NCBI GenBank assembly: GCA_041690355.1 | Contig: JAWLHK010000030.1 | Span: 1 to 43,319, forward strand | Origin: a bacterium | GTDB taxonomy: Bacteria > J088 > JAWLBW01 | Reading direction: 5' to 3' | Length of the DNA stretch: 43,319 bases | Shown here: positions 13,780-28,670 of the stretch, in pieces | Layout of the letters: every line of letters starts with the position of its first letter | Numbering within the stretch: position 1 is the stretch's first letter | Program-made: the position numbers and the translations under genes | Notes under the pieces: model-generated | Database searches by the model: none | What the model saw: the letters and a program-made list of their open reading frames with translations, nothing else | Told to the model about the DNA's origin: nothing

Positions 13780-14766
13780 TCAACGGACGAGGCGTAAACG
13801 GGCCGCGCGGGGTTTGGGCACGCGGATCCGGTGCAGGCGTTTGTTGACGGCCGCGCGGTCAAACCGGCCGGGGTCGAAGCTGCCGCCGAGCCACTCCCGG
13901 TAGCTCTCGTGCTCGTCATCGCCGGGATCCGCGAGCGAGGCCAGCATGCGCTCATACCCCGGCGGTCCGCCGACGTCTTCGGGAGGACACGCATTCTTCC
14001 CCGCCAGGCAACTGATGCGCCCGTCCGGCGGCGGCTCGGCGAGCACCTTTTCGACGACGACCTCGTGCTCCCAACTGTCGCCGAAATCGTATTCGTAGAT
14101 CAAGTGGTCCTTGGGCGCGCCGAGGAGATCGCCCACGTACATCTTGCGCTCGTCCCCATCGGGCGGCGTGAAGTCGTCTTCGTGGGGAATCGCATAGCGC
14201 AGATGTCCGAGCAGGAACTGGTGCAGGTGGCTGTCGGTCCACCCCATCGCTTCCTGCAGAACCGTGTGCAATGCGGGCAGCTTGAGATCCGCGGGCACGA
14301 CCACGCGCCGCCAGACGGCCGGTGCGACATGCCGCAGCGTAACCTTGAGCTGCAGCCAGGCGCCTGCCGGCGCATGTGCCCTGGGCCGGGTCGCGGGCTG
14401 CGCCTTCTGCAGATTGACGATGATGTTCGAGAGCGGGAAAAGGTTACTCTCGACGTAGGCGGCAATCTGGCGGGCTTCGCTCTGCGACAGAAGCTCCATC
14501 AAGACGTGGGCCTGCAGGTAGGTCTCGGCCAGGGCGAGCAGATCGAGATTGTCGCTGTCGTCGCGCCCCTCCGCGAGCGCGCCGGCGAGCGCACCCGGGG
14601 TCCACGTCTTCTCCCGCGCAGCGCGCGGGATCTGGTAGGCCATCGGTCCGACCGCGTACCGGCCGAACTGCGTGTCGAGGATCGTGGCCAGCATGCCGAT
14701 CTCGAGGAGCCACTCGGCGTTGGAGGCGGGAAGCGGGCGATCGGCGGCATTCGGTACGCGAGACAT
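13780..14766 (-). CDS. Plasmid pRiA4b ORF-3 family protein with N-terminal extension
   Basis: LQLKVTL..VWRRVVVP..LHTVLQEAMGWTDSHLHQF, YEYDFGDSWEH, CPPEDVGGPPGY; start uncertain. Confidence 0.88.
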   Translation of the reverse strand: MSRVPNAADRPLPASNAEWLLEIGMLATILDTQFGRYAVGPMAYQIPRAAREKTWTPGALAGALAEGRDDSDNLDLLALAETYLQAHVLMELLSQSEARQIAAYVESNLFPLSNIIVNLQKAQPATRPRAHAPAGAWLQLKVTLRHVAPAVWRRVVVPADLKLPALHTVLQEAMGWTDSHLHQFLLGHLRYAIPHEDDFTPPDGDERKMYVGDLLGAPKDHLIYEYDFGDSWEHEVVVEKVLAEPPPDGRISCLAGKNACPPEDVGGPPGYERMLASLADPGDDEHESYREWLGGSFDPGRFDRAAVNKRLHRIRVPKPRAARLRLVR

Positions 14767-14817
14767 GCGGGTCAGCGTATCAGAAGGTTGACCGGGCGGC
14801 GACTGGCGCCGATCATC

Positions 14818-14930
14818 GGACGCCGGTAGGCACCCACCTTGGGGAAAGACAAGACATAGGGACCGGCGATTTGCCAAAACATGGGTACCCGTTCTTGCCG
14901 GAATATCAGTGCTCAGCGCTTGGCGCTTCT
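14818..14930. repeat. Family B dispersed repeat, copy 3
   Basis: Shares the GGACGCCGGTAGGC leader and the core with 346-452. Confidence 0.8.
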
Positions 14931-14959
14931 CCCCCAAGGCACCCGAGGAACGGTGGACA

Positions 14960-15431
14960 CCCACTGTCCACCCTCTCGGCTACCGTGGCATGGCGCCCGG
15001 ATCACTTCGAGAACGCGCCCCCTGAGCTGCGCGCCGCAGCCCACGAACGGATGTGCGCCCTCACCGAAGCCTACCGGCAACTCGTGAATCTGCTCGTGCG
15101 CGACGGAAGCGGGTACGGCGGGGGCGACCGGGAGAGCGCCGACGTGGCCCGGTGGGTCGGGCGGGCGCACGGCCACGACACCGACCTGCGCTCCGGCGAC
15201 TACGCCGAGATTGTCGAGATCGGCCCGCAGGACGACTTCTACACCCGCCGCGACGCCTTCCTGGGCGCCCTCGTCCTGATCCGCGATCCGCTCCCCCGCG
15301 GCCTCGGCTGGTACTGCGTGCATGTCGCCTTCCACCTCAACCCACGCCTCCTCGCCCGCCATGCCGACGGGGCCCTGTTCGGGTATGTGCGGTTGCGGCG
15401 GGTTATTCATGCAGAAATGGAGAAGGGGTGA
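14960..15431 (+). pseudogene. Probable 5'-truncated J-domain-containing gene
   Basis: WRPDHF..ELRAAAHERMCALTEAYRQL resembles the second half of a J domain (HPD replaced by RPD); the ORF start lies inside a repeat. Confidence 0.45.
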
Positions 15432-15721
15432 CGTGGCTGCCATGAGACCATTCTGGAGTCATCGAGTGACATACGACGCCCCCGTCGGCATCGCTTCACA
15501 ATGACACAGATATGGCCACTCTCCAGCGGTATGCATGCCGGTGATTCACGACGCTCGGGACCCAGCTGTTGCCTAAGCCAGAGACAAGTTAATCGCGCGC
15601 TCTCAGGTCGAAAGTACCACGCAGCAATTGAGGGGGCACTTGTCTTACATTCACACGAGTGCGCGACCGCCATGTGTATCGGCGGAGATCCGTCACAGGC
15701 CCAGGCGGCGGGGATTACGGT

Positions 15722-16459
15722 TTATGAGGGGGCCAAGCCACAAGCCCTCATCGTCCCACAACATGCCAAGCCCGAATTCGCCTGGTAGAACTGTTGTTCA
15801 GCTTTGCGAACCTCATCGCGAAGTTTGCGAATTTGAATGAGGTTGGGCCCATGGCATGCCTCCACTCGAAGTGCCGACCCGCAAGGGCACTGCTTACCCG
15901 GGGTCGTGGTTGTGTTCCACTCTTGCAGTGAGGCGGGGACAGTCTCGAGGACCCTATCTAATTCAATTTGGATCTCGGCCGCTTTCCGTCCATGCGGCCA
16001 TGCGTCGTCCTGCCATTTTCCGGAGAGGGTGGCTTTATTCTGAAGCTTCAGAAAATGATGCAGGATGCCCCAGAATTTCTGGGCGTCGTTTCGTGTAATG
16101 GGATATGACGGTTGACTGGGGTCAAATCCCAGGCAGAAATACCCCTCCCGCACGATGTGTCTGGGGAAGCAGACTCCTGGTAGCTTTCTCGCCCCCGGAA
16201 ATTCACGAACCCTGACCGCACCTGGAGCAAACGGTCTTGCGGGCACCCACGAAGGGTCTGTAATCTCAATGACATACGTGGGACCCCGGCCATCGAGTTG
16301 CTCGGTGGCTACACCTGCCAAAAGCGTCGGCGTCCTTACGCAGCCGGGCAGCGTCAGGGCGTCAAGTCTCGTGTCTGACGAGCCGACCAAAAGTGAGGTT
16401 GTCACGTACTTCCGATCAGCCTCACGTTCCAGAAGAATGAGTGCAGGTGAAGGAGTCAT
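15722..16459 (-). CDS. Prokaryotic E2 (ubiquitin-conjugating-like) protein with SEC-C-like zinc motif
   Basis: PRHIVREGYFCLG resembles the E2 HPNI..G.ICL catalytic-Cys motif; CPCGS..CHG and CCGTM..C tail; ATGA overlap with the cyclase stop. Confidence 0.7.
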   Translation of the reverse strand: MTPSPALILLEREADRKYVTTSLLVGSSDTRLDALTLPGCVRTPTLLAGVATEQLDGRGPTYVIEITDPSWVPARPFAPGAVRVREFPGARKLPGVCFPRHIVREGYFCLGFDPSQPSYPITRNDAQKFWGILHHFLKLQNKATLSGKWQDDAWPHGRKAAEIQIELDRVLETVPASLQEWNTTTTPGKQCPCGSALRVEACHGPNLIQIRKLRDEVRKAEQQFYQANSGLACCGTMRACGLAPS

Positions 16460-17949
16460 TCCGCAAAGGCCCGACTCTTTACGAGCACGGGGCCCCCTAC
16501 CTGCTGTAAGACCTCCAATTTGGCTTTCTCGGCCGCCTTCTCGGGGATATGAGCCTCAACCATGTTAAAAGTCAGCTGGGTAGATTTTCCATTGGTATCG
16601 AAGAGGTCGCGAAAGTGTTCCGGGAGCTTCTTCTGCATGACCTCACCGACTGCCGTCTCGGAGCCACTGCAACGTTCCTGAGCAGCCTCCGAGCTGTAGA
16701 CTGCTTGGCCACCAGCCGCGCGAACTCGGCTGCCTTTCACCCCAAGGCGGGTGATGCTGAGCGGCCCGAACTCCAGTCCGATGGCCAAGCCGAGCACCTG
16801 CGTATCCGGTAGGATCTCTTGGATTTCTGCGAATGCGTCCCTCATCGCGCCGGCTGCCAGTAGTGCCTGGGTGATCGTCGCATTGACGTCAGTCGCTTGC
16901 GCACCCACGGCAATCATGGCATGCATGCAGTCCCCGATGTACCGAATCTTTCGACCCTCGAATACCTGGTGAATGATATTCCGCAGCTCGGTGCGGATTA
17001 CGTGGAGCGCCTGAATCGCCCCCTTCGCGTCTCCGTTCTCGATTGCTTCGCGAACGTACTTTGTAAAGCCGTCGATGTCCGCATAGATCGAGATGGCTTC
17101 GATGCGCCTCGAGTTGGCTGGGGTCAGTACACCAAATTCAAGTTGGTTCAGTGGGGGTGTCGGTCTCGAGAAGGAAATTTCCGAGAGCCGGTGCTCGGTG
17201 AGCTCCTCTTCCCAAGCATCGAGAAGCGAGTCCATTACGATGCCGAGCTGGGCGGCGGTTTCACAGTCTTCGATCTGGCCACTCGTCAATGGTGTCTGTT
17301 TCGGGTTGCTGGCTGCCCAACCTGCCCCCATCGACGATCTCGCCTGAGAACCAAGGTAAATGCCTTCCTGGTTGCCGGCGAGCAGTTTCGCGGCCTGGTT
17401 TGCGGGCTCCCCAATGAAAAGCGGTTCCCGATCGCCGTTCGTTCCGTTGTTCACGGCCAGCGAAATGCCCGACTCGATACCAATCCGAACTCTCACGTCA
17501 GGCAGTTCTTCGTGAAGCTCATCTGCCGCTTTCAGCAACCGCCACACCAAATTGGCCACCGCCACGGCGTTCTGGACCCTCGCTACTTCGCGAGAGGTAT
17601 CCTGGCCGTCGTAAGGTTTAAACACAACGAAGTGTAATCGCGCGTTCTGAAAGTCAACCCTCATGGCAGCATCCGTGTTCCGAAACACGGTATGGCAAGC
17701 CCGGACGTACAGGTTCAAAAAGCGAAGGTATCGTTTATGACTGCGTTCAGAATCCGACTTGTCGGTTTGAAGCAGCTCGCGGGCGTTCAGAATGTCGATA
17801 TAGACGTGAACACCTCGTACCAGGTAGGCCTTTCCGTTCGGGATAGAGGTCAGGTCCCGCTCTCGGACAAGGTCGACAATTTCCGGATTGGCGAGCTTCT
17901 TCTTCTCCGCTTCGCTACGCTTCCGGCTTTCTTCGATTGACCATTTCAT
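16456..17949 (-). CDS. Tandem class III nucleotide cyclase (two adenylate/guanylate cyclase-like domains)
   Basis: Domain 1: VYIDILN, RIGIESG, IGEPANQAAKL. Domain 2: IYADIDGFT, RYIGDCM, AIGLEFG. Confidence 0.85.
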   Translation of the reverse strand: MKWSIEESRKRSEAEKKKLANPEIVDLVRERDLTSIPNGKAYLVRGVHVYIDILNARELLQTDKSDSERSHKRYLRFLNLYVRACHTVFRNTDAAMRVDFQNARLHFVVFKPYDGQDTSREVARVQNAVAVANLVWRLLKAADELHEELPDVRVRIGIESGISLAVNNGTNGDREPLFIGEPANQAAKLLAGNQEGIYLGSQARSSMGAGWAASNPKQTPLTSGQIEDCETAAQLGIVMDSLLDAWEEELTEHRLSEISFSRPTPPLNQLEFGVLTPANSRRIEAISIYADIDGFTKYVREAIENGDAKGAIQALHVIRTELRNIIHQVFEGRKIRYIGDCMHAMIAVGAQATDVNATITQALLAAGAMRDAFAEIQEILPDTQVLGLAIGLEFGPLSITRLGVKGSRVRAAGGQAVYSSEAAQERCSGSETAVGEVMQKKLPEHFRDLFDTNGKSTQLTFNMVEAHIPEKAAEKAKLEVLQQVGGPVLVKSRAFAE

Positions 17950-17959
17950 CGTGAATTCC

Positions 17960-18523
17960 TCAACTCACAAGATTCAAAATAAGGGCCGCGACCAGCGCCA
18001 CCAAGCCGGCCAGTGCCGACGTCAGCCGTGCTCTCCCGAACCATTTATACTTTTTGGCGACAATCCGAGCCTGTTTGTACACTTGGAACGAGAGGTCGAC
18101 CCAAGCGGCCCGTCGGTCGAGACGAGCATATCGGTCGACATACTCTTTTCTCGGTGCGTCAGCGACCGCTCCGAAGTAGATCAACTCCTCCGGCTTATAG
18201 TCCTCGGGCCAGCCGCCTTGGTACTCGTCCTGATCCAGGCGTGCCTTCACGAGTGCGTAAATGCAGACGTACGAGGCGATCAGTAAACCCAGGCTCCCTA
18301 GGAGAGCCAAAATGACCATGGTTTTCAGCGGACAGTAGCCTGCCAAGACTTCGCTTGCCCGGACTTTGGGTGCCAGATCGGCCGAAAGCAGCACAAAGAT
18401 AGCCGCGTTCACCGGGATCAGGAAGGCACCCTTTCGGTCTGCAGCCTGAATCTGGCCATCCACGTGCAGGTTGGCCTGCTGCGCATGTTGATAGCGCAGT
18501 TGTAGTTGTTCGTCGTCGGTCAT
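17960..18523 (-). CDS. Pycsar-type transmembrane effector (PycTM/DUF5706-like)
   Basis: IQAADRKGAFLI, hydrophobic helices, LIYFGAVA, DLSFQVY..ARIVAKKY; ends 10 nt before the cyclase ATG; alternative start 18550. Confidence 0.8.
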   Translation of the reverse strand: MTDDEQLQLRYQHAQQANLHVDGQIQAADRKGAFLIPVNAAIFVLLSADLAPKVRASEVLAGYCPLKTMVILALLGSLGLLIASYVCIYALVKARLDQDEYQGGWPEDYKPEELIYFGAVADAPRKEYVDRYARLDRRAAWVDLSFQVYKQARIVAKKYKWFGRARLTSALAGLVALVAALILNLVS

Positions 18524-18806
18524 GCCTGTTCTCCACAGCTCGGCAACCACTCGATGAGCGGATAAGACCGGAGATGACAGGCAGGCGCTTGCGCGCCAGG
18601 GGGTAATTTGCTAAGTTGAGGATGCGATATCTGGTTGCCTGTCAACCAGCCTATGTACGGGGAAGTCATGTTGGCGCATGACTTCCCCATTTTTTTTGCC
18701 AATCTTGATATGTAAGCCTTAGTGCTCCCGCGAAAGAGACTCTTTCCGTCCTCGGCAATGAGCGCTCGGAATCATGCCACCTACAGTGAAGCACATTCTG
18801 CGCACG

Positions 18807-18849
18807 TTGACAAGTTACGTCTACCTGCCCATAATTATGGGCAGGAGGA
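18807..18849 (+). promoter_or_regulatory. Sigma70 promoter with overlapping palindromic operator and RBS
   Basis: TTGACA (18807-18812), 17-bp spacer, CATAAT (18830-18835); perfect palindrome CCTGCCCATAATTATGGGCAGG (18824-18845); AGGAGGA RBS. Confidence 0.85.
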
Positions 18850-18855
18850 GTACAC

Positions 18856-20019
18856 ATGGATAACGCCCTGAAACCGAATGCAATTTTGGCGGAAAATATC
18901 CGTAAGTACCGTCTAGAGCGCGGTCTTTCTCAGACTGATGCGGCAAAAACTGCAGGCCTCTCCCGGAATGCGTATCTTAATCTTGAGGCCGGCCGATCGG
19001 AACCACGATTTAGCACCCTTTTGCAGCTCGCGAACTTGTTTGGTGTGAAGCTAGAAGACTTCTTCACCCCGCCTAGGACTTTGCATTCCGTTCGTTTCCG
19101 CGCTCATAAGCAGATGACGACGAGGGATGAGATACTTCACCGCGTCGGCAGATGGCTGGACAGCTATGTCGAACTCGAACTCATCACGAAACAGGTCTGC
19201 GAATTTCCGGTCAAGAAGATACGGGGTGTCGCCTCGCGTGTCAAGAGTGGGAATCGAGCCGAAGTTGCCGCTCAAGAAGCCAGGAAAGCGTTTGGGCTGA
19301 ACGACACTGATGCTATCCGGGATATCTGCGGCCTCTTTGAGGACAAAGGTATTAAGGTCTTCGCTATGTCGGTTAAGTCGGACGGGTTCTTTGGGCTGTC
19401 CGTTGGTGAAGAAGATGGTGGCCCGGCCGTGGCTGTCAATACCGACGAACGAATTCCTGTAGAACGGCAAATATTCACTGCTGCCCATGAGTTAGGCCAC
19501 CTCATTCTTCACTTGGACGCATTCAATGTGAATAATTCGGAAGAGGATGAGCGGCAAGAAAAGGAAGCCAATCTTTTTGCAGGTTGCTTCCTCATGCCGA
19601 AGACGCTTTTCGAGTCAGAGTGGGAGGAAACGAGAGGTCTTCGCTTCGTCGATCGGGTCTTGAAGGTGAAGCGGATCTTCAATGTTAGTTACAAAACCGT
19701 ACTTTACCGTGTGGGCGAAGTAACGAACGAGCGGCAAGTCTGGGAACGCTTCAAAACGGAGTACAAAGAGCACTACCAGAAAACACTGAAGTTTGACGAG
19801 GAACCCGACGGCATTAAGGGGAGTATTCTGAACCATGGGGCACCCGCTCGGTTGGAGCCGAGGCGGTTGGACCCAGCCGACTTTATGGTTGATCGGCTGA
19901 ATCGACTTGTAAGGAAGGCTCTTGAGGACCAGTTAATAAGTCGTAGTCGAGCGGCAGAAATTCTTGGGATGCCAGTCCCACGTCTGCTCGAACTGCAAAA
20001 GTCCTGGGCGCTTCATTGA
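18856..20019 (+). CDS. XRE-family HTH fused to ImmA/IrrE (DUF955, peptidase M78) metallopeptidase
   Basis: N-terminal cro/C1 HTH; FTAAHELGHL HExxH; EKEANLFAGCFLMP; C-terminal ISRSRAAEIL. Confidence 0.93.
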   Translation: MDNALKPNAILAENIRKYRLERGLSQTDAAKTAGLSRNAYLNLEAGRSEPRFSTLLQLANLFGVKLEDFFTPPRTLHSVRFRAHKQMTTRDEILHRVGRWLDSYVELELITKQVCEFPVKKIRGVASRVKSGNRAEVAAQEARKAFGLNDTDAIRDICGLFEDKGIKVFAMSVKSDGFFGLSVGEEDGGPAVAVNTDERIPVERQIFTAAHELGHLILHLDAFNVNNSEEDERQEKEANLFAGCFLMPKTLFESEWEETRGLRFVDRVLKVKRIFNVSYKTVLYRVGEVTNERQVWERFKTEYKEHYQKTLKFDEEPDGIKGSILNHGAPARLEPRRLDPADFMVDRLNRLVRKALEDQLISRSRAAEILGMPVPRLLELQKSWALH

Positions 20020-20055
20020 TCAGCGTCATTGGAGCGCGCACTTTTGGACATATGG

Positions 20056-20604
20056 ATGAAGTTGCCATCAATAAAGAACGGCCTTGTTGTGGATGCAAGC
20101 GCTCTGATCGACCTATATGTTGGTGCCAGGAGAGCCCTTCCGCTGATTAGCGCAAACATTGGCCAGTTGCATGTGCCCACGCCCATTCTCAGCGAGGTCG
20201 AACACCTCGACGAAAGACGTTGTCGTCGTCTTGGCCTATCCGTTTATCAACCGTCGGTACAGCAGCTCACGATAGCGAGTCGTCGAATCGCAGGCTTGTC
20301 GTTCGCGGATCGAATCTGCTTGACCGTCGCCTGCGAAGAAAGGTGGGTAGTCGTTACGAATGATAAGCCCCTCAGAAAGCAGTGCGTTGAAGCCAACGTG
20401 CTCGTTGCCTGGGGACTGGAGCTGCTGGTAGACTTGGTCGGTCGAAAAGTCATCCCTAAAGACGACGCCGTTGCGATGGGCAAGGCGATTCAAGAAACCA
20501 ATCCTTACATTACAGCCGGGATATTGGATCGCTACGTGAAGAAGTGCGCGGGCGCAACTCGGGAAAACCTTTTGGTGCCGACACTTTTGCGAGAGTCATC
20601 GTAG
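20056..20604 (+). CDS. PIN-domain protein, putative toxin partner of the HTH-IrrE protein
   Basis: VVDASALID, ILSEV, LSFADRIC, VTNDKPLR; alternative start 20029. Confidence 0.8.
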   Translation: MKLPSIKNGLVVDASALIDLYVGARRALPLISANIGQLHVPTPILSEVEHLDERRCRRLGLSVYQPSVQQLTIASRRIAGLSFADRICLTVACEERWVVVTNDKPLRKQCVEANVLVAWGLELLVDLVGRKVIPKDDAVAMGKAIQETNPYITAGILDRYVKKCAGATRENLLVPTLLRESS

Positions 20605-20708: not shown

Positions 20709-21776
20709 TCAGGCAGGGGCATTGGCACCGGAGTTGACCGGGGGGAAGCGCCTGTGCACAGGTCGGCCCCGTCCCGACTTCTCGATAAGCGCCAACTCGA
20801 TGCCGTGCTCCTTAGAAAGAACATCCAACGTACCGGCTATCTGCTCCGCATAGCCGTCCTTTGTCTCCCCGGTAAGGAGGACGATGGCGGGGCCACGATG
20901 TTTCCACGCGGCAGTATATATCGGAAGTTGCTCTCGGATAAGTCGATCCAGCGCGTCCTTCCTATTGAGATCAGCTTTCATTTCAATGATGACATTGCCA
21001 ATGCAGATGTCCGCACGCCTAGTTAACCCATCAAACCCAGACTCCTTCGAAAGGTGAACACCAGGGAATTCGGCACTCAGGTGAGCATTAAGGCTGTCCT
21101 GAAACTGTCTCTCCCAAACAAGCCATCCCTGCGGTCGCCACGATTCAACGGCTCCGATGACACTTGCGACCGGGTCACCCGGAAATTGCATTGGCAGGCG
21201 CTCTGCTACGTCAAAGAGTATCGGCGCGCCTGCCGGAATCTCGGGCTCAACCTTTCGATAGGGGAAAGAGACCCTGACTTCAGGCGCAAGGTATGTCAAG
21301 GCGACGGCACCAAGCATGAAGATCGTACCGAGCGCTCCGTAGTTCCAAACCAGGGTCGGTGCATGAAAATTCACAAGCCTGACCCAGGCTACTCCTATGC
21401 CCTTCGTGAGAGCAAGGTGCGGATAGCCCAACGCATCGAGAAGACCAAAAAATGCGAGAACCACGAGTATTGCAACGAACCCCGCACGAACCTCTAAACC
21501 CTCGGCTCCTTCACGCATGAGCCAACCCAATGGGAGGCGGCGTCTGGACGCTGGAGCCTGATAGTAGACGACGGAGCCTAAAGCGATCGAGGCCAGGCCA
21601 ACGAGAACACCCAGCCCGCAAGCAAGGTAAAGAAAATCAGGCAATATCGGGAGCCATGCGGCACGAACGTACTGTAGAAACGCAGAGAGCCCGCAGAATA
21701 GAACGCCCACCACGAGGAAAAGAAGGTAGTAGGGGACGATGATTGTGGTCGCGACGTTATCGGCTTTCGTGCGCAT
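20709..21776 (-). CDS. Multi-pass membrane protein with C-terminal PD-(D/E)xK-like nuclease domain
   Basis: About four hydrophobic segments, then ERQFQDSL..E..RRADICIGNVIIEMK. Confidence 0.6.
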   Translation of the reverse strand: MRTKADNVATTIIVPYYLLFLVVGVLFCGLSAFLQYVRAAWLPILPDFLYLACGLGVLVGLASIALGSVVYYQAPASRRRLPLGWLMREGAEGLEVRAGFVAILVVLAFFGLLDALGYPHLALTKGIGVAWVRLVNFHAPTLVWNYGALGTIFMLGAVALTYLAPEVRVSFPYRKVEPEIPAGAPILFDVAERLPMQFPGDPVASVIGAVESWRPQGWLVWERQFQDSLNAHLSAEFPGVHLSKESGFDGLTRRADICIGNVIIEMKADLNRKDALDRLIREQLPIYTAAWKHRGPAIVLLTGETKDGYAEQIAGTLDVLSKEHGIELALIEKSGRGRPVHRRFPPVNSGANAPA

Positions 21777-21798: not shown

Positions 21799-22185
21799 TG
21801 CGTATTTCGGTCTAAGCGGCCGAGGATTTCGGTTAAATCGGCCGGCGTATCGGAGAATTACGGCCGGGGTAAACCCTTAGCGTAACGGCACCAGCTCCGC
21901 TCATCTTACTTGGCGGGCTTCTCCGCCTGCAAACCCCGCTTCGTCTTGCGCATGGATCCACCCTTCATCTCGATCCTGTGCGCGTTGTGCACAAGCCGGT
22001 CGAGGATTGCATCGGCGAGTGTGGCCTCGCCCATCAGGGCGTGCCAGGCCTTCACGGGCTGTGATTAGTATTGAGCCAAAATCGTTGTTCCTCGAGCACT
22101 TCTAGAATGTCCCTTCGTCCCGTGTCGCCGATGGGCTCGAGTTTCCAGTCGTCGATGACGAGCAGGTTCGTACGGGCGACCTTTC
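21799..22185 (-). mobile_element. istB: IS21-family remnant: 3' fragment of istB plus probable right end
   Basis: Minus-strand translation gives LLVIDDW..RDILEVLEE, a frameshift, then [34 protein letters not shown] (stop at 21906); TGCGTATTTCGG end with repeated CGGCCG motifs from 21799. Confidence 0.85.
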
Positions 22186-22231: not shown

Positions 22232-25200
22232 TCACCCCACCCCGCCGCGCAGCAGCTCTTTCGCCTCGGTCAGCAGGCGCAGCACGGTGAGGGTGAAGCG
22301 GTGGGCCGACTCGTCGGTGGCCAACACGGCCAGCGACATCTTTTCCTGGTCCTGCATGTTGTCGAGCACGGTGTCGGTGACGCGTTGCGGGAAAATGCCG
22401 TGCATGACTGTTTCGGGGGTGTGGTTCTGCACCTGGGCCATGACGTCATCCTGCCGGCTGATGCGTTCGGCGATGGTTTTCGCGAACTGGAGCTGGTCGT
22501 TATCCCCCACCTCGGCGCCGAAAATCTCGTTGAGCGCCTGAATGATCTCGGCCAGCCGCTTCTTCTCGGGCTCGTGGGCCTTGCCGGTGCCGATGGCGCT
22601 GCCGGGCTGCAGGGGATACGGATCATGGTCGTCGCCGAGGCGCAGCGCGGCTTCGTCGTGTTTCGTAAGCCGGTAGTGCGTCAACTGCAGTTCGGCGACG
22701 TCGACATCCTCGGTCTCCAGCCGGTCCACGCGCAAGAGCGGATACAGGTGCCGGGCGTAGACGCAGAGCTGCTCGAGCTCGCGGTCGTCATATTCCACGA
22801 TCTGCGAGAGAAACTCGTACAGCCGCACGAAGCTCATAAGGTTCTTCTTGAACAGATCGAGCTGGTCAATTTGCTCGCCGGCCACCTTCAAATCATGTTC
22901 CGCCCGCTTCAGGCCGATGCTGTCGCCGTTGGTGTCGGCCGTACGCTTCGCCTCGCGCGCGCGCTGGGCCGCCTCCTGCGCCTCGCGGTAGCGCAGCTTG
23001 AAGCGATCCTTCGCCGGCTGGCAGTAGAAGGACAGTTTGCTCGCCGGCGCCTTGGGGTCGAAGAAGGCGAGCGCGAAACTGCGCACTTCCTCCCAATGAT
23101 AGATCCCCTCGGCGTCGAGTGTTTTCTGCACGTCGTAGACGGTCTGCGGGTCCGAGACATCCGCCAGCTCGGCCTTGTTGTAGTAGGGGAGAAAGGCGTC
23201 GAGAATGTCCTGCGGGTCGTTGAAAAAGTCGAGGATGAACGTCTCCTTGCCCGGAAACGTGCGGTTGAGCCGCGAGAGGGTCTGCACGCAGTCGACCCCC
23301 TGGAGCTTCTTGTCAACGTACATGGCGCACAGCTTCGGCTGGTCGAAGCCGGTCTGGTACTTGTTGGCCACGATCATGACGTTGAAGTCCTGTGTGTCGA
23401 AGGCCTCGGCCAGGTCGCGCTTGTTCAGCCCGGGGTTGAGCAAGGTGCTCGTCTCGCTCACCTCTTCGGGAATCACGCCGTCGGGGAGCACGGTGCCCGA
23501 AAAGGCGACGAGCGGGTGCACGTCGGCATAGCCCATCTCCTTCACGTACTGCTTCACGGCGAGCTGGTAACGCACGGCTTCCTGGCGGCTGCCGGTGACG
23601 ACCATGGCCTTGGCCTGGCCGTTCAGCAGGTGACGCACGTGCTGCCGGAAGTGCTCGACGATGACCTCGACCTTCTGGCGGATGTTGTGCGGATGCAGCC
23701 GCACCCAGCGGGCCAGCTTCGTGCGCGCCTTCTTCGAGTCGACCTCTTCGTCTTCCGCATGCGGATGGGCGATCTTCCACGCCGTCTTGTAGGTGGTGTA
23801 GCGCTGCAGCACGTCGAGGATGAACCCCTCTTCGATGGCCTGCCGCATCGAATAGATGTGAAACGGCGCCGGCTTGTTCTCGGCGCCCGGCGGCTGCGAC
23901 GGGTCGGGTACGCGGCCGAACAGCTCCAGCGTGCGCGCCTTGGGGGTCGCGGTGAAGGCATAGTAGCTGATGCGATCATGGGGCCCGCGGGCCTGCACGG
24001 CGGCATCAAGCAGCTCTTCGGCGCTGATCTCTTCACGCTCGGGATCTTCCCCCTCGGCCTCCTTCTCGCTCGTCAGGATCGCTTTCAGCTTACTCGCCGA
24101 AGAGCCGGTCTGCGACGAGTGAGCCTCGTCGGCGATGACCGCGTAGCGCCCCGAGGCGAGCTTCGGCTGCTTGTTCAGCGCCTCGAACAACGCGGGAAAG
24201 GTCTGAAGGGTGACAATGATGATGCGCGTCTGTTCGGCCAGGGCCTCGGCGAGCTGCTCAGATTTGCTCTGGTTGCCGAGATCGCGGCTGATGGGGCGCA
24301 CGACCCCCTGCGCATGTTCAAACTGGTAAATCGTGTTCTGCAACTGGCTGTCGAGCACGGTTCGGTCGGTGACGACGATGACCGAGCTGAACATGCGGTT
24401 CCCCGCGTCGTCGTAGAGCGAGGCGAGCTGGTGGGCCGCCCAGGCGATGGAGTTCGACTTGCCCGAACCGGCGCTGTGCTGCACGAGATAGCGCCGTCCC
24501 GCCCCCTCGGCGCGCGTGGCGTCGACGATCTTGTTCACGACCTCCCACTGGTGGTAGCGCGGGAAGATCATCGTCTCTTTGGTGACCGGTTTGCCGTCGA
24601 ACCCCTCCTTCGTCTCTTTCTGGAGGTGCAGGAAACGCCCCAGCACCTTGAGCCAGGCGTCGGGCTGAAAGAGTCGCTCCCACAGGTAGCCCACGGCATA
24701 CTGCGTGTCGTCGGCGGGGCGGGGGTTGCCGGCACCCCCGTCTTCGGTCCCCCGGTTGAAGGGGAGAAAGAAGGTGTCGTCGCCGGCCAGCCGGGTGGTC
24801 ATGGCCACCTCGCTCTGCCCCACGGCGAAGTGCACCAGGGCGCCCCGCTTGAAGGTGAGCAGCGGTTCGGGCTTGCGCGTGACGGGATCCTTGACCGGGC
24901 GGTCTTTGCAGTACTGGCGCTTGGCGTTCTCGACCGACTGCTTGAACTCGCTCTTCAGCTCGAGGGTGGCCGTGGGGATGCCGTTCACGAAGAGCACCAG
25001 GTCGAGGCGCGGGTTGTACTCCCCTTCGCGCGCGTGGGGCGAGTAGGAGACCTCGGGCACGACGCGAAGGCGGTTGGCGCGGTAGCGCCGCAGGCTGTCG
25101 GGGTTCATGCCGTGATCGGGCTGAAAGCTGCACAGCTCAATCTTCACGCCGGGCACCTTGAACCCGTGGCGCAGCACATCGAGGGTGCCGTCCTGATCGA

Positions 25201-25426
25201 GCGCGCGCACGACCTTCTGCACCAGCACCGATTCGGGGTTGTTCGGGTTGCTCTTGCGGAATTTCTCCCACCGGTCAGGCCAGGCTTCTTGAAAGTAAGC
25301 GATCAGATCTTCGGGGTAGACGGCTGCCGCGCGGTCGTACCCGGATGCCTTGCCCACCAGCCACCCCTGGGCGGCCATGGCGCCGATTATGTCCTGCTGA
25401 AAGGCCAGCTCCCGGCTGTCAGCCAT
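22232..25426 (-). CDS. hsdR: Type I restriction endonuclease subunit R
   Basis: LDLVLFVNGIP..LELK nuclease motif, HSAGSGKS Walker A, DEAHSSQ, FTATPK, QTGFDQP, QTLSRLNR. Confidence 0.97.
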   Translation of the reverse strand: MADSRELAFQQDIIGAMAAQGWLVGKASGYDRAAAVYPEDLIAYFQEAWPDRWEKFRKSNPNNPESVLVQKVVRALDQDGTLDVLRHGFKVPGVKIELCSFQPDHGMNPDSLRRYRANRLRVVPEVSYSPHAREGEYNPRLDLVLFVNGIPTATLELKSEFKQSVENAKRQYCKDRPVKDPVTRKPEPLLTFKRGALVHFAVGQSEVAMTTRLAGDDTFFLPFNRGTEDGGAGNPRPADDTQYAVGYLWERLFQPDAWLKVLGRFLHLQKETKEGFDGKPVTKETMIFPRYHQWEVVNKIVDATRAEGAGRRYLVQHSAGSGKSNSIAWAAHQLASLYDDAGNRMFSSVIVVTDRTVLDSQLQNTIYQFEHAQGVVRPISRDLGNQSKSEQLAEALAEQTRIIIVTLQTFPALFEALNKQPKLASGRYAVIADEAHSSQTGSSASKLKAILTSEKEAEGEDPEREEISAEELLDAAVQARGPHDRISYYAFTATPKARTLELFGRVPDPSQPPGAENKPAPFHIYSMRQAIEEGFILDVLQRYTTYKTAWKIAHPHAEDEEVDSKKARTKLARWVRLHPHNIRQKVEVIVEHFRQHVRHLLNGQAKAMVVTGSRQEAVRYQLAVKQYVKEMGYADVHPLVAFSGTVLPDGVIPEEVSETSTLLNPGLNKRDLAEAFDTQDFNVMIVANKYQTGFDQPKLCAMYVDKKLQGVDCVQTLSRLNRTFPGKETFILDFFNDPQDILDAFLPYYNKAELADVSDPQTVYDVQKTLDAEGIYHWEEVRSFALAFFDPKAPASKLSFYCQPAKDRFKLRYREAQEAAQRAREAKRTADTNGDSIGLKRAEHDLKVAGEQIDQLDLFKKNLMSFVRLYEFLSQIVEYDDRELEQLCVYARHLYPLLRVDRLETEDVDVAELQLTHYRLTKHDEAALRLGDDHDPYPLQPGSAIGTGKAHEPEKKRLAEIIQALNEIFGAEVGDNDQLQFAKTIAERISRQDDVMAQVQNHTPETVMHGIFPQRVTDTVLDNMQDQEKMSLAVLATDESAHRFTLTVLRLLTEAKELLRGGVG

Positions 25427-26774
25427 GCACGGCCTCGCGGGCGGATGATTTCAATGCCGTGTCGGGGGGCGGTTGCCAGCCCCGCACGTCGATCTTCCCG
25501 GTGACAGCGGCGGAAATGAGGGCGGAGCGGCGTTCTTGAAGGAGGTGGACTGCTTGCTCAGCCGTCATCACCAACATATCCATTGCGTTAGAAGCAGCTT
25601 CCAAATGGTCCACTATTCGTTCCTGCTCCCCAAGAGGAGGGACAGCGAGGCTGTAATTTCTGACCGTGGCCACATTGACATGAGGCGACGTTGCCCCGAC
25701 CGTGTCTACGTCGCCTTGCTTATAAACCGCATCTGAATTCAAAAGGAACATCAGATAGGAGGGCGAGATACCCTCAGCTGCCCGAAACTGCATCATACGC
25801 TGCCCCAAGGCATAACGTCCTGATTCCGGAACCACAGCTGCATGACCCCACCGTTCACCTTCTCGGCCATAAACGATGTCCCCTTCATCAAGGCTCGCGC
25901 GTCGCGTCCGAATAATGTACTGATCCTGATCCAACCTGTACATCTGCTCTCGCTTTAAGACCCCACGATCAATGTCCGCCGTCCTGATGACAAGATACTC
26001 ACCATCTGGCTCGTATATCGGCGTTTCGTGAGGGCAATCCACGATCATCGATGTCACATGCTTCAGTCTGGTCACCTCCCAATGCGCCGGCACCTCGCCA
26101 AGCCACTCGACTCCGGAATCCTTCATGGGCACGGTGGGGTCGAGCCCCTTGGTCACGGCATGGGAAATCACCGCCTGCCGCTTTTCCTGGAGCAGTTCGA
26201 TGAGCCGCTGCTGCTCGGTGATCAGCGCGTCGATACGCGCCGTTTCGTGGTCGAGGAAGCCGGCGATTTGGGATTGTTCGCCGTCGCTGGGAATCAGTAC
26301 CGGCAGCCATTTCATGTCGGCATATCCAATGGACTGTCGAAGGCCACCACCCATGGAGTAGAAGACCTTCGTTAAGTCGTACGCCCGAAACAAGTAGTTG
26401 GAGAACCTAGGGTTGATGCCCCGGCTGACAACAGCGAGATAGGCCGATGTTATGATTCCTTTCTTACCAACAATTGCACTGCGGAGGCTTCGTTTATCGT
26501 TCTGAAGGTCAGTGAGACGAAAAACAACGTCGTCTTCGTATACGATCTGGTAGGTCTCAAAAGACTCTGGAAGCAAGCCTTCAAGGGTGTTGATGTCCTT
26601 GTCGACGATCGCACCGTAGCTCAATGACAGGAGATTCGACTCTTGCATCCCAATGTTCTTTTCTTTTCGCTCTCGAAATTGGCTGAAGAACGGGACAACT
26701 TGCCAATGACCAGGCACGGGCCCTACCCACTCGACCCCCGAATCCTTATACGCCTCGTACTTCGGGAAGCTCAT
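25419..26774 (-). CDS. hsdS: Type I R-M specificity subunit S
   Basis: Two KDSGVEW.G..P.HW repeats, [22 protein letters not shown]. Confidence 0.96.
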
Positions 26775-28525
26775 GCCGACAGCTCCTCGATCATCTGCTT
26801 GATGCGGTCGGTGCAGGCTTTCAGGTCGCGGTCGATCTCCTCCAACGGGCGCGGCGGCTTGAACTCGTAGAAGTGGCGGTTGAACGGGATCTCGAAGCCG
26901 ACGATCCCCACTTCGCCGTCTTTCTCGTCCCGCTTGCTCTCGTCGATCCAGGCATCGGGCACATGGGGCTTCACTTCGCGCTCGAAGTAGTCATCGACCG
27001 ACTGGCCGAGCGGCACGTTCTCGGAGTCGCGCAGGGCGGGGTCGGCTTCGGGTTTCCCCTTGTTCTTCCCCTTGGTCGCGATGACGACCTTCCCCTTCTC
27101 GTCGCGCAGGGGGCGCTCGACGGTGATGCGCCGGTAACCGAACGCCTCGACCGGGAAAATTTTGCTCTTCGGCCCCTCTTCAAAGCGCCCGTAGAGGCGC
27201 ACGAGGTCTTCGATCTGCTCGTCGGCGATGTACTGGCGCTTGCTCCCTAGCGACTTGCGCATCTTCGTGAAGTGCTGCGTGCCGTCGATGAGCTGCACCT
27301 TGCCCCGCCGCACCTTCGGCTTGTGGTTCGAGAGAATCCAGACGTAGGTCGCGATGCCGGTGTTGTAGAACATGTCGGTGGGCAGGGCGACGATCGCCTC
27401 CACCAGGTCGTTTTGCAGCAGATAGCGCCGGATCTCCGATTCGCCGCTCCCCGCGCCGCCGGTGAACAGGGGCGAGCCGTTCAGGATGATGCCGATGCGC
27501 GAACCCCCTTCGCGCGGGTCGCGCATCTTGCTCACCAGGTGCAGCAGAAAGAGCATCGACCCGTCTGACACGCGCGGCAGGCCGGGGCCGAAGCGGCCGG
27601 CGAACCCTTTCTTGGCGTGTTCGTCCTTGATCTGCTTTTCGACCTTCTTCCAGTCGACCCCGAACGGCGGGTTGCTGAGCATGAAGTCAAATTTTTCGTT
27701 CGGCAGAAGGTCGTTCGAGAGGGTGTTCTCTTTCTTGATGTTGCCGACCGCCTGTCCCTTGATGAGCATGTCGGCCTTGCAGATGGCATACGATTCGGGG
27801 TTGAGCTCCTGCCCGAACAGCGAAACGGTGACCTTCTGGCTCACCTGCTGAATGTACTCCTCTGACTCGGAGAGAAAGCCCCCCGTGCCGGCCGTGGGGT
27901 CGTAGATGGTGACGATGCCGTTCGGCTTGAGTTTGTCGTCCTGCCCGGTGAGCACGAGCGAGGTGGTCAGGTGCACGATGTCGCGGGGGGTGAAGTGCTC
28001 TCCGGCCGTCTCATTCGAACTTTCGGCGAACTTCCGGATGAGCTCCTCGAAGATGATCCCCATGCCGAAGTTGCTGATCCGTTTCGGGCTGAGATCGACG
28101 GCGGCGAACCGCTGGATGACCTGGTAGAGCAGGTTGTTGGCGGCGAGCTGCTCGACGTAGTCTTCAAAGTGGAAGTGTTCGAAGATGTCGCGGCCGTCGG
28201 CGCTGAACGACTGCACGTAGCTCATCAGGTCCTGGGCCGGCTGGCTGTCCGAGATCGTGCCCAGCGAGAGGGGCGAGGCGTTGTAGAACTGCTGCCTGGC
28301 TTCGCGCAGCAGAATCTTCTCGCGCGCCGCGTCGGGTTTCTTCTGGTGCTCTTTGGCCGCCGCCAGCACCTTCTTCTTCGTGGGCTCGAGCACGCACTCC
28401 ATGCGGCGCAGCAGCGTGAAGGGGAGAATGATGCGGCCGTACTGGGATTGTTTGAAGTCGCCGCGCAGCAGGTCGGCGATGGACCAGAGAAACGCGGCGG
28501 TCTGGGAGTGGTTTTCGGTGTTCAT
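26771..28525 (-). CDS. hsdM: Type I R-M N6-adenine methyltransferase subunit M
   Basis: [32 protein letters not shown]. Confidence 0.97.
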
Positions 28526-28670
28526 CCGGGTAACGCGTCCATACAGGGGGTGCGGGGCCGCGGGGCAGAGGGCGCGCGGGGGTCCGCAGAATATCCGATC
28601 GGGTACCCGACCGGGCTTCAATCGAAGCGATATTCTACCAGAATGGGGTGGACAGCGGTTGTCTGGGGAC

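Follow-up and report, generated by a model that had tools for sequence, protein, structure and literature searches.

Why should an operon built from a nucleotide cyclase and a membrane effector also carry the gene of a lone E2 protein, with no E1 beside it? The question is raised by three genes at positions 15722-18523 of contig JAWLHK010000030.1 (assembly GCA_041690355.1; the whole stretch analysed, 43,319 nucleotides, is called the window here), which encode a PycTM effector, a two-domain cyclase (PycC) and an E2 protein. The answer proposed, with a probability of roughly 0.7 for the statement as a whole, is that the locus is an E2-only, PycTM-type clade A Pycsar (pyrimidine cyclase system that confers resistance to phages) in which the E2 would process the tail of its own cyclase. 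The identity as clade A, lone-E2 Pycsar is very likely; for tail processing, the third step of the mechanism set out below, the odds are about even.

The three genes and their products

The genes are co-directional on the minus strand, and translation of the open reading frames (ORFs) gives intact frames with no internal stops: 17960-18550 (196 amino acids, aa, counted from a GTG), 16456-17949 (497 aa) and 15722-16459 (245 aa). In the minus-strand read-out the TGA stop of the first gene is followed by 10 nucleotides (nt; ggaattcacg) and then by the ATG of the second, whose stop shares an ATGA with the start of the third. The layout is as follows.

17960..18523, minus strand: pycTM, 187-aa membrane effector, from Pfam PycTM and PADLOC PycTM; the alternative GTG start at 18550 would give 196 aa
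17950..17959, minus strand: 10-nt spacer between pycTM and pycC, read directly; a GAGGA overlaps the pycTM stop
16456..17949, minus strand: pycC, 497-aa clade A two-domain Pycsar cyclase, from PADLOC PDLC00762 and PDB 6yii_A
17356..17838, minus strand: N-terminal cyclase domain, about residues 38-198, from the single-domain PADLOC PycC models (E = 2.8e-12)
16732..17106, minus strand: C-terminal cyclase domain, about residues 282-406, from Pfam Guanylate_cyc, with the pair D291, D340
16456..16459, minus strand: ATGA in which the stop codon of pycC overlaps the start codon of the E2 gene, read directly; translational coupling
15722..16459, minus strand: E2 gene, 245 aa, E2-ntca plus a C-terminal Cys-rich domain, from Pfam, PADLOC and an AlphaFold model
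16133..16135, minus strand: codon (tgc) of Cys109, the predicted catalytic Cys, motif H101-x7-C109-L, from conservation and codon read

For the first gene the ATG at 18523 is the likelier start, since it is preceded by GGAGAA. The product exceeds the cut-off of Pfam PycTM (PF18967, a family formerly of the DUF5706 type; E = 7e-9, 36.5 bits against 27.2) and in its 187-aa form has three hydrophobic stretches, at residues 32-52, 59-96 and 164-187. The cyclase is thus adjoined by an effector of the PycTM/PycTIR kind, lying immediately 5' of it across the 10-nt spacer. PADLOC, which a first-pass annotation made from the sequence had proposed running on all three proteins, returned PycTM at 2.2e-21, PycC (PDLC00762) at 1.9e-167, with residues 1-477 on profile positions 3-480 of 508, and E2 at 3.2e-32.

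The cyclase also matches Pfam Guanylate_cyc in two stretches (35.5 bits, cut-off 21.9; best stretch 282-406), and the one solved structure matched is 6yii_A (E = 3.1e-110, residues 6-473). This structure is that of PaPycC, a clade A enzyme; the paper on PycC clades gives two consecutive cyclase domains as the hallmark of clade A and conversion of UTP to cyclic UMP (cUMP) as the activity of clades A-D (PMC11224242). Two cyclase domains stand in one chain in the window PycC, and by homology to PaPycC its product would most likely be cUMP. The first-pass annotation had described three tightly coupled genes, a DUF5706-like effector and a cyclic-mononucleotide system with a double-domain class III cyclase, and each of these descriptions agrees with the read-out and the matches above.

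Conservation of the active site was read from an alignment of 35 lone-E2-type cyclases. The metal-binding Asp pair of the C-terminal domain, D291 (YADIDGFT) and D340 (IGDC), is found in 35/35 at each position, and the N-terminal domain has the motif G..PAN.AAK with N184 (35/35) and K188 (34/35), both present in the window. At the equivalent positions of the C-terminal domain, where Asn and Arg/Lys would stand, there are S420 (31/35) and Q424 (35/35). All predicted catalytic residues of the window cyclase (D291, D340, N184, K188) are intact. In class III cyclases such a pattern of residues means that, of the sites between the two domains, one is complete and the other degenerate. Assigned from these motif positions, the two PycC domains would form an intramolecular pseudo-heterodimer with a single complete active site, to which the C-terminal domain contributes the two Asp residues and the N-terminal domain N184 and K188, the mirror site (S420, Q424) being degenerate.

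The third protein passes the cut-off of Pfam E2-ntca (E = 3e-11, 44.1 bits against 27.5) and matches E2-Crich below that family's 27-bit cut-off (E = 4.3e-5, 24.4 bits). Pfam finds no ThiF or E2-E1mid domain in its 245 residues, and the window's contig is free of ThiF/E1 and JAB matches, the only ThiF and Prok-JAB matches of the genome being on other contigs; the E2 is therefore lone in the locus, which has the lone-E2 form and not that of Cap2/Cap3. Beside the cyclase, across the ATGA overlap, there is thus an E2-fold protein with a predicted catalytic Cys (E2-ntca, C109). A confident AlphaFold model made from 35 homologues (predicted local distance difference test, pLDDT, 86; predicted template modelling score, pTM, 0.80) was compared exhaustively with 48,161 chains, among which the E2 region of Enterobacter Cap2 came first (7to3_A, Z 7.8, root-mean-square deviation, rmsd, 3.6, 125 residues aligned) and the Serratia CdnG-bound E2 third (8hsb_B, Z 6.8, rmsd 4.3, 129 aligned).

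In 35/35 lone E2s and 16/16 E2-E1 fusions there is no variation at C109, at H101 eight residues ahead of it, or at H156. C97, C191 and C193 are also invariant in lone E2s, and the residues that set lone E2s apart from the fusions are C97, N103 and Q140. The invariant C97 lies 12 residues before C109, a place where the fusions have E, D, S or T. In the window E2 and in those of two related loci, L003 and L050 (L numbers denote loci of the survey described below), the Cys-rich domain begins with a CPCGS...C-H motif, which we take to resemble a zinc knuckle of the SEC-C type. H101 and H156 were considered as a marker of protease-type lone E2s and rejected, both being present in all 16 fusions; for the CBASS (phage-defence signalling system based on cyclic oligonucleotides) proteins, bioRxiv 10.1101/2022.05.25.493364 reports the matching His residues only in lone E2s.

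The cyclase-E2 pair in other genomes

Is the E2 a local addition or a regular partner of this cyclase? After 23 cyclase homologues had been aligned, 185,579 species were scanned, each represented by one genome; a cyclase relative is encoded in 384 stretches, of which the best 80 were kept as genome loci. One related protein, P0004, is 62% identical to the window cyclase. With the window proteins as tblastn queries, the 80 loci gave the cyclase in 80/80, E2 directly downstream in 60/80 and PycTM in 1/80; other loci have at the E2 position a Cap2-like E2-E1 fusion, some 570 aa long and comprising E2-E1mid and ThiF domains. After 580 neighbouring ORFs had been clustered, their representatives annotated and tblastn repeated with all family members, an accessory gene is found right after the cyclase in all loci but two: 62 have a lone E2 there and 16 an E2-E1 fusion. 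The two exceptions are a 1.7-kb contig (L054) and a cyclase whose C-terminus looks scrambled (L001). A Prok-JAB gene lies 3' of 15/16 E2-E1 genes and of 0/62 lone E2 genes; WYL is a neighbour in 10 loci.

A metagenome scan with a single protein added 28 loci, none above 45% identity, and all 24 that extend at least 1 kb downstream have the accessory gene (15 E2, 9 E2-E1 fusion). Genomes and metagenomes combined, E2 or E2-E1 is present in 102 of 108 loci, and five of the six without it have no room downstream. Of the 57 loci in which a single ORF spans the E2 match, 30 share with the window the 4-nt overlap between cyclase stop and E2 start. Chance adjacency of the E2 was rejected on the pairing in 78/80 and 24/24 loci and on this shared overlap. 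The accessory gene is essentially obligatory in this cyclase clade. It follows from the 102 loci that two-gene descriptions and detection rules of Pycsar understate this branch, throughout which an E2 gene belongs to the ordinary unit rather than being a local oddity. The first-pass annotation had taken the architecture as non-canonical and possibly undescribed, a view that does not hold: two domains are the mark of clade A, and an E2 or E2-E1 gene follows nearly every cyclase of this kind.

The effectors are less constant. Within 5 kb of the cyclase the 80 loci have:

cNMP-binding (cyclic nucleoside monophosphate-binding) TIR protein only: 39 loci
TIR and PycTM: 30 loci
PycTM only: 6 loci, 5 of them with a lone E2
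none found: 5 loci

The composition of the window, a transmembrane (TM) effector only and a lone E2, is a minority form because 5/62 lone-E2 loci have TM without TIR, and the upstream place of its TM gene makes for an unusual gene order. The neighbourhood survey proposed in the first-pass annotation, where failure of the three genes to occur together was to count against a system, divides: the cyclase-E2 pair is kept in 78/80 loci, but the effector varies, with TM alone in 6/80. Since the window PycTM detects a counterpart at one locus only, family clustering, Pfam and the multi-query search were needed to find the others; the ORFs 5' of the cyclase in the nearest loci L003, L008 and L050 match no Pfam or PADLOC family.

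In a maximum-likelihood tree of 79 cyclases, from which L001 and L054 were left out, all 16 E2-E1-linked cyclases fall in one clade (Shimodaira-Hasegawa-like approximate likelihood ratio test, SH-aLRT, 98), and the window belongs to a deep group of five lone-E2 members with L003, L008, L025 and L050 (SH-aLRT 99). The branches of the window cyclase (1.32), L003 (1.62) and L008 (1.49) are long and exact placement is unsure. The locus is a divergent, intact member of clade A lone-E2 Pycsar, and one that comes from a sparsely sampled lineage.

Three observations concern the survey loci themselves. In 25/80 clade A Pycsar loci the TIR/TM effector genes have beside them the gene of a conserved protein, about 230 aa long and matched by neither Pfam nor PADLOC (cluster u234; L057:2965-3669, minus strand, and 24 other loci). 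The protein is not present in the window; it is a candidate for a further effector or accessory of clade A Pycsar. In 10 loci (L004, L005, L017, L022, L024, L029, L030, L035, L052 and L053), all from alphaproteobacteria and mostly from Rhizobiales families, a gene for a class II (B12-dependent) ribonucleotide reductase of about 1270 aa stands directly 5' of the Pycsar operon, a linkage that points to a common site of insertion or to an island passed on vertically. In an Azospirillum locus, a gene 5' of the two-domain PycC (L075:3654-4961, plus strand) encodes a cNMP_binding domain (4.6e-10) fused to Guanylate_cyc (3.3e-12), which may relay or amplify the signal instead of acting as an effector that kills.

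Does the operon then have a fourth member? A gene on the plus strand, facing away from pycTM, is the one to consider.

18524..18855, no strand: divergent intergenic region 5' of pycTM, 332 bp, within which the operon promoter is presumed to lie

The gene at 18856-20019 (plus strand) encodes a 387-aa protein with HTH_3 and Peptidase_M78 domains and could be a fused regulator of the CapH/CapP type that, with the operon, would make a four-gene unit. Its divergent position, PADLOC matches to capP (2.7e-19) and capH (5.8e-10), and a Peptidase_M78 gene divergently upstream of the cyclase in 8/80 loci all point that way, as does the match of three of those M78 proteins to window positions 19267-19866 (1.5e-5 to 6.7e-5). 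But its best PADLOC match is much better, to RmrA, the RosmerTA antitoxin (2e-34 over residues 16-290), 72/80 loci have no M78 gene of this cluster, and the PIN gene that begins 10 nt downstream (191 aa, Pfam PIN 1.6e-5; the pair spans 18856-20604, plus strand) suits a separate two-gene system of toxin-antitoxin type. The PIN protein has no PADLOC model match at 0.001. The pair is probably, as judged from its domains and matches, a RosmerTA-like toxin-antitoxin defence pair with a PIN toxin; a separate system of that kind is more likely than a regulator of the operon, and the four-gene unit is an unlikely reading.

The same intergenic region has a strong promoter-like site for the HTH-peptidase gene (TTGACA-17-CATAAT, 18807-18835, plus strand), the sole one found; for the operon no promoter passed the consensus scan. 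It also has a GC-rich hairpin of 13 bp at 18659-18688, with a T-run on the plus strand to 18698 (on the minus strand the A-run comes first). This element, 18659-18698, lies 136 nt 5' of the pycTM start, no plus-strand gene ends there, and it may insulate, be the relic of a terminator or have a regulatory role in the operon leader.

The cyclase tail and the role of the E2

What the E2 may do is suggested by the last residues of its partner.

16459..16497, minus strand: C-terminal tail of PycC, residues 485-497 (GGPVLVKSRAFAE), with the proposed site of E2 processing and conjugation at F495-A496, leaving E497; from tail comparison and the Serratia analogy

In cyclases paired with an E2-E1 fusion, GF[A/S] is the very end of the protein in 16/16, and in those paired with a lone E2 it is so in 0/62. 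The latter have instead, in 60/62, the motif [P/A][H/Y/F][small] followed by 1-10 further residues, three in 35 of them. The window cyclase, which ends ...KSRAFAE, fits this lone-E2 pattern; the tails of its nearest relatives end ...ARAYGGRR (L003) and ...RPRAYCE (L008). Full-text literature searches, in which the primary papers were covered incompletely, found no description of the tail dichotomy, and we do not claim that it is unpublished.

A precedent for such a tail exists in E2-only CBASS of Serratia. According to bioRxiv 10.1101/2022.05.25.493364, the cyclase tail there ends Y405-G406-E407; the E2 removes E407 and joins G406 first to its own Cys101, then to a lysine. The system tolerates G406A and requires His87; the E2 acts as its own protease with no E1, and poly-conjugation "fully activates" the cyclase. 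The Pycsar tail pattern fits E2-mediated tail processing and conjugation of this kind, and regulation of PycC by ubiquitin-like conjugation, which the first-pass annotation had proposed, is by the same analogy plausible.

The working of the system, of which we infer the trigger, the nucleotide and the whole of the third step, may be put as follows. Phage infection would lead PycC to make a 3',5'-cyclic mononucleotide, most probably cUMP as above; the nucleotide would activate PycTM, which would damage the membrane and abort the infection. In the third step the translationally coupled E2 would act on the cyclase: Cys109, with His101 and His156 nearby, would attack the flexible PycC tail at F495-A496, releasing E497 and leaving PycC linked to the E2 cysteine, from which a lysine of the E2, of a second PycC or of a cell protein would take it over, and cyclase activity would thereby be primed or tuned. 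Neither E1 nor ATP would be needed, as reported for E2-only CBASS. A wider version can be offered only tentatively, and is rather more doubtful than the step itself: lone-E2 Pycsar would follow a sortase-like route that needs neither E1 nor ATP, the place of E1 being taken by Cys97 and the Cys-rich domain, while its E2-E1 sisters would start from the ready-made GF[A/S] end. If this is true, one cyclase clade evolved two chemically different routes of "ubiquitin-like" self-conjugation.

Co-folding of PycC with the E2 gave a median score of 0.49 (runs 0.47, 0.49 and 0.61; best of three controls 0.00), which the procedure terms "weak support". The mark was reached by 58/80 solved complexes and 2/110 mismatched pairs, and among those that reached it a score of 0.60 or under was seen in 7 of those 80 complexes and in both mismatches, counts that hold only roughly here as custom alignments were used. 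At least 90% of contacts are common to the runs, and the partner has a pLDDT of 78 or more.

The same linkage and tail evidence would serve an E2 that is a brake: by tethering or capping PycC, or by marking it for turnover, the protein would hold a toxic pathway silent until infection, and its loss would then raise signalling, not lower it. Coupling through 4 nt would give about equal amounts of the two proteins, as expected of a stoichiometric inhibitor, and the cyclase-E2 isopeptide complex of E2-only CBASS is stable (bioRxiv 10.1101/2022.05.25.493364). What makes a brake improbable is that the characterised relatives report activation: besides the full activation of the CBASS cyclase by lone-E2 poly-conjugation, E1/E2 conjugation is described as "priming their enzymatic activity".

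It is also conceivable that the E2 ignores PycC, modifying a phage protein or the effector or sensing infection, the cyclase tail being kept for autoinhibition or membrane targeting. Bil E1/E2 systems conjugate a ubiquitin-like protein to phage tail proteins, the co-fold support for a PycC-E2 pair is weak, and lone E2s have an additional invariant Cys97 and a Cys-rich domain. However, the operon consists of PycTM, PycC and E2 and has no ubiquitin-like gene, the GF[A/S] end tracks the type of E2 partner perfectly, an association difficult to account for with an E2 that leaves the cyclase alone, and the cyclase-E2 pair is constant while effectors vary among TIR, TM and both. This reading is accordingly held to be very unlikely.

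Several points weigh against tail processing and, in part, against the assignments on which it builds. The tail motif was defined after the tails had been seen and is loose; L025 and L050 (...KPHQR) fall outside it, and the window tail lacks the usual PA...RP spacing. The co-fold, being weak support without an interface, does not establish that the tail inserts into the E2 pocket, and the His residues near the Cys are no specific evidence for a protease-type E2. The structural Z-scores of the E2 are all below 8, a level that according to the tool is common by chance, so that the match supports an E2 fold but does not decide it; Foldseek with the E2 model gave nothing at E <= 0.001, though E2 and ubiquitin E2 variant (UEV) proteins fill the top rows, and the sequence profile of the E2 family gave no PDB chain at E <= 1. 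The window E2 has Val103, where 32/35 lone E2s have Asn, the counterpart of the Asn in the E2 "HPN" motif, and its transfer chemistry may differ or be impaired. For the E2-associated "Pycsar-like-4" cyclases a preference for ATP has been predicted from AlphaFold3 ligand scores (bioRxiv 10.64898/2026.08.12.744502), which conflicts with cUMP as the product if Pycsar-like-4 is clade A. Literature searches found no experimental study of lone-E2 Pycsar or of this locus.

That the locus is instead a decaying copy that gives no defence, as the Val103 substitution, a tail shorter and less typical than in the main group, the long branches of the window, L003 and L008 cyclases and a nearby IS21 IstB fragment betraying a rearranged island might suggest, is the least probable reading of all, given three intact and coupled frames, the presence of every invariant catalytic residue of the cyclase and of C97, H101, C109 and H156 of the E2, and variation at position 103 in other intact relatives (Val in L043, Tyr in L003).

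The island and comparison with known systems

GC content is 0.55-0.57 across 16-22 kb and 0.66-0.70 on the left flank. Among 40 related genomes, of which one is of the same family and three are of the same phylum, no PycC-like match was found bar one generic cyclase match (2.1e-6). The low GC and the missing PycC-like match together argue for horizontal acquisition, and this composition and distribution indicate that the operon is probably carried on an acquired defence island. A type I restriction-modification (R-M) system is present, all on the minus strand (HsdR 22232-25426, HsdS 25419-26774, HsdM 26771-28621); the first-pass annotation was right about it and about the lower GC, but not in placing the operon beside it, as the R-M genes lie 3.7 kb away, beyond the HTH-peptidase gene, the PIN gene, a 355-aa ORF and the IstB fragment.

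The 355-aa ORF (20709-21776, minus strand), between the PIN gene and the R-M system, is matched neither by Pfam at 0.01 nor by PADLOC at 0.001 and could be an uncharacterised defence gene. Between it and hsdR is an insertion-sequence scar, 21942-22094 (minus strand), whose 51 residues share 57% identity with the C-terminus of an IS21 IstB ATPase (L026:3010-3759, IstB_IS21 7.9e-99). On the other side of the operon, where a second effector or a JAB gene might be hidden 3' of the E2, neither Pfam nor PADLOC gave a match for the minus-strand ORFs 15407-15673 and 14913-15443, and a gene with a Plasmid pRiA4b ORF-3-like domain (13780-14964, minus strand; PF07929, 2e-60) stands at the left island edge, where GC rises again. 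Proteins of the neighbour families of the 80 loci have no match in the window outside the three genes, except in the M78 gene and the IstB fragment.

The nearest described system is the clade A Pycsar of Pseudomonas aeruginosa (PaPycC/PaPycTIR, 6YII), which has the same two-domain cyclase and is likewise a cyclic-mononucleotide system with a dedicated effector. The effector differs, being PycTM alone and upstream in the window and a cNMP-binding TIR protein in PaPycsar. The literature passages describe PaPycsar as cyclase plus TIR and do not mention an E2; the Pseudomonas-type loci L062 and L077 have a lone E2 after the cyclase, as in the window.

Accessory E1, E2 and deubiquitinase (DUB) proteins in Pycsar are already mentioned in three preprints, including 10.1101/2024.11.21.623953 and 10.64898/2026.08.12.744502; the 2022 preprint version of Ledvina et al. 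makes no mention of Pycsar. "Type II Pycsar" is the name given, in bioRxiv 10.1101/2024.11.21.623953, to pathways with a fused E2-E1 that conjugates the signalling enzyme. Relative to these, which have an E2-E1 fusion and JAB, the window has a cyclase of the same clade and a homologous E2 domain (H...C...H in 16/16) at the same gene position, but no E1 (ThiF) domain or JAB gene and a tail that is not GF[A/S], and the E2-E1-linked cyclases form a separate clade. "Pycsar-like-4" cyclases are a subclade defined by E2-like neighbours, sometimes with E1-like domains, JAB peptidase and WYL regulators, and regulation by ligation has been suggested for them (bioRxiv 10.64898/2026.08.12.744502). The surveyed loci have the same neighbour set (E2, E2-E1, JAB, WYL), and Pycsar-like-4 may be the same as clade A.

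Mammalian membrane adenylyl cyclases have a C1-C2 pseudo-heterodimer in which one domain gives the two Asp residues and the other the Asn and a basic residue. PycC resembles them in having two class III domains per chain with one complete and one degenerate site; domain order and regulation are different and the likeness is a design analogy only.

The closest parallel for the accessory gene is the E2-only (short type II) CBASS of Serratia marcescens (CdnG/cGAS-E2, 8HSB), where a lone E2 likewise stands beside the signal enzyme with no E1 or JAB. An assignment of the operon itself to short type II CBASS was rejected, its only synthase being a class III cyclase and no CD-NTase being present; the Serratia synthase is a CD-NTase, whereas that of the window is a class III cyclase whose product would be a cyclic mononucleotide. 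The Pycsar E2s differ from the Serratia protein in an extra Cys-rich C-terminal domain and the invariant Cys97, with no detectable sequence similarity. Both E2s have a catalytic Cys, a predicted one in the window, with a His on either side, and they match structurally at Z 6.8; both cyclase tails, YGE in Serratia and FAE in the window, present an aromatic and a small residue and then a short remainder, which is removed in Serratia and would be removable in the window. The tail dichotomy of clade A thus offers a direct test of whether E1-independent conjugation, so far described for one CBASS, is a general strategy that extends to an unrelated class of signal enzyme.

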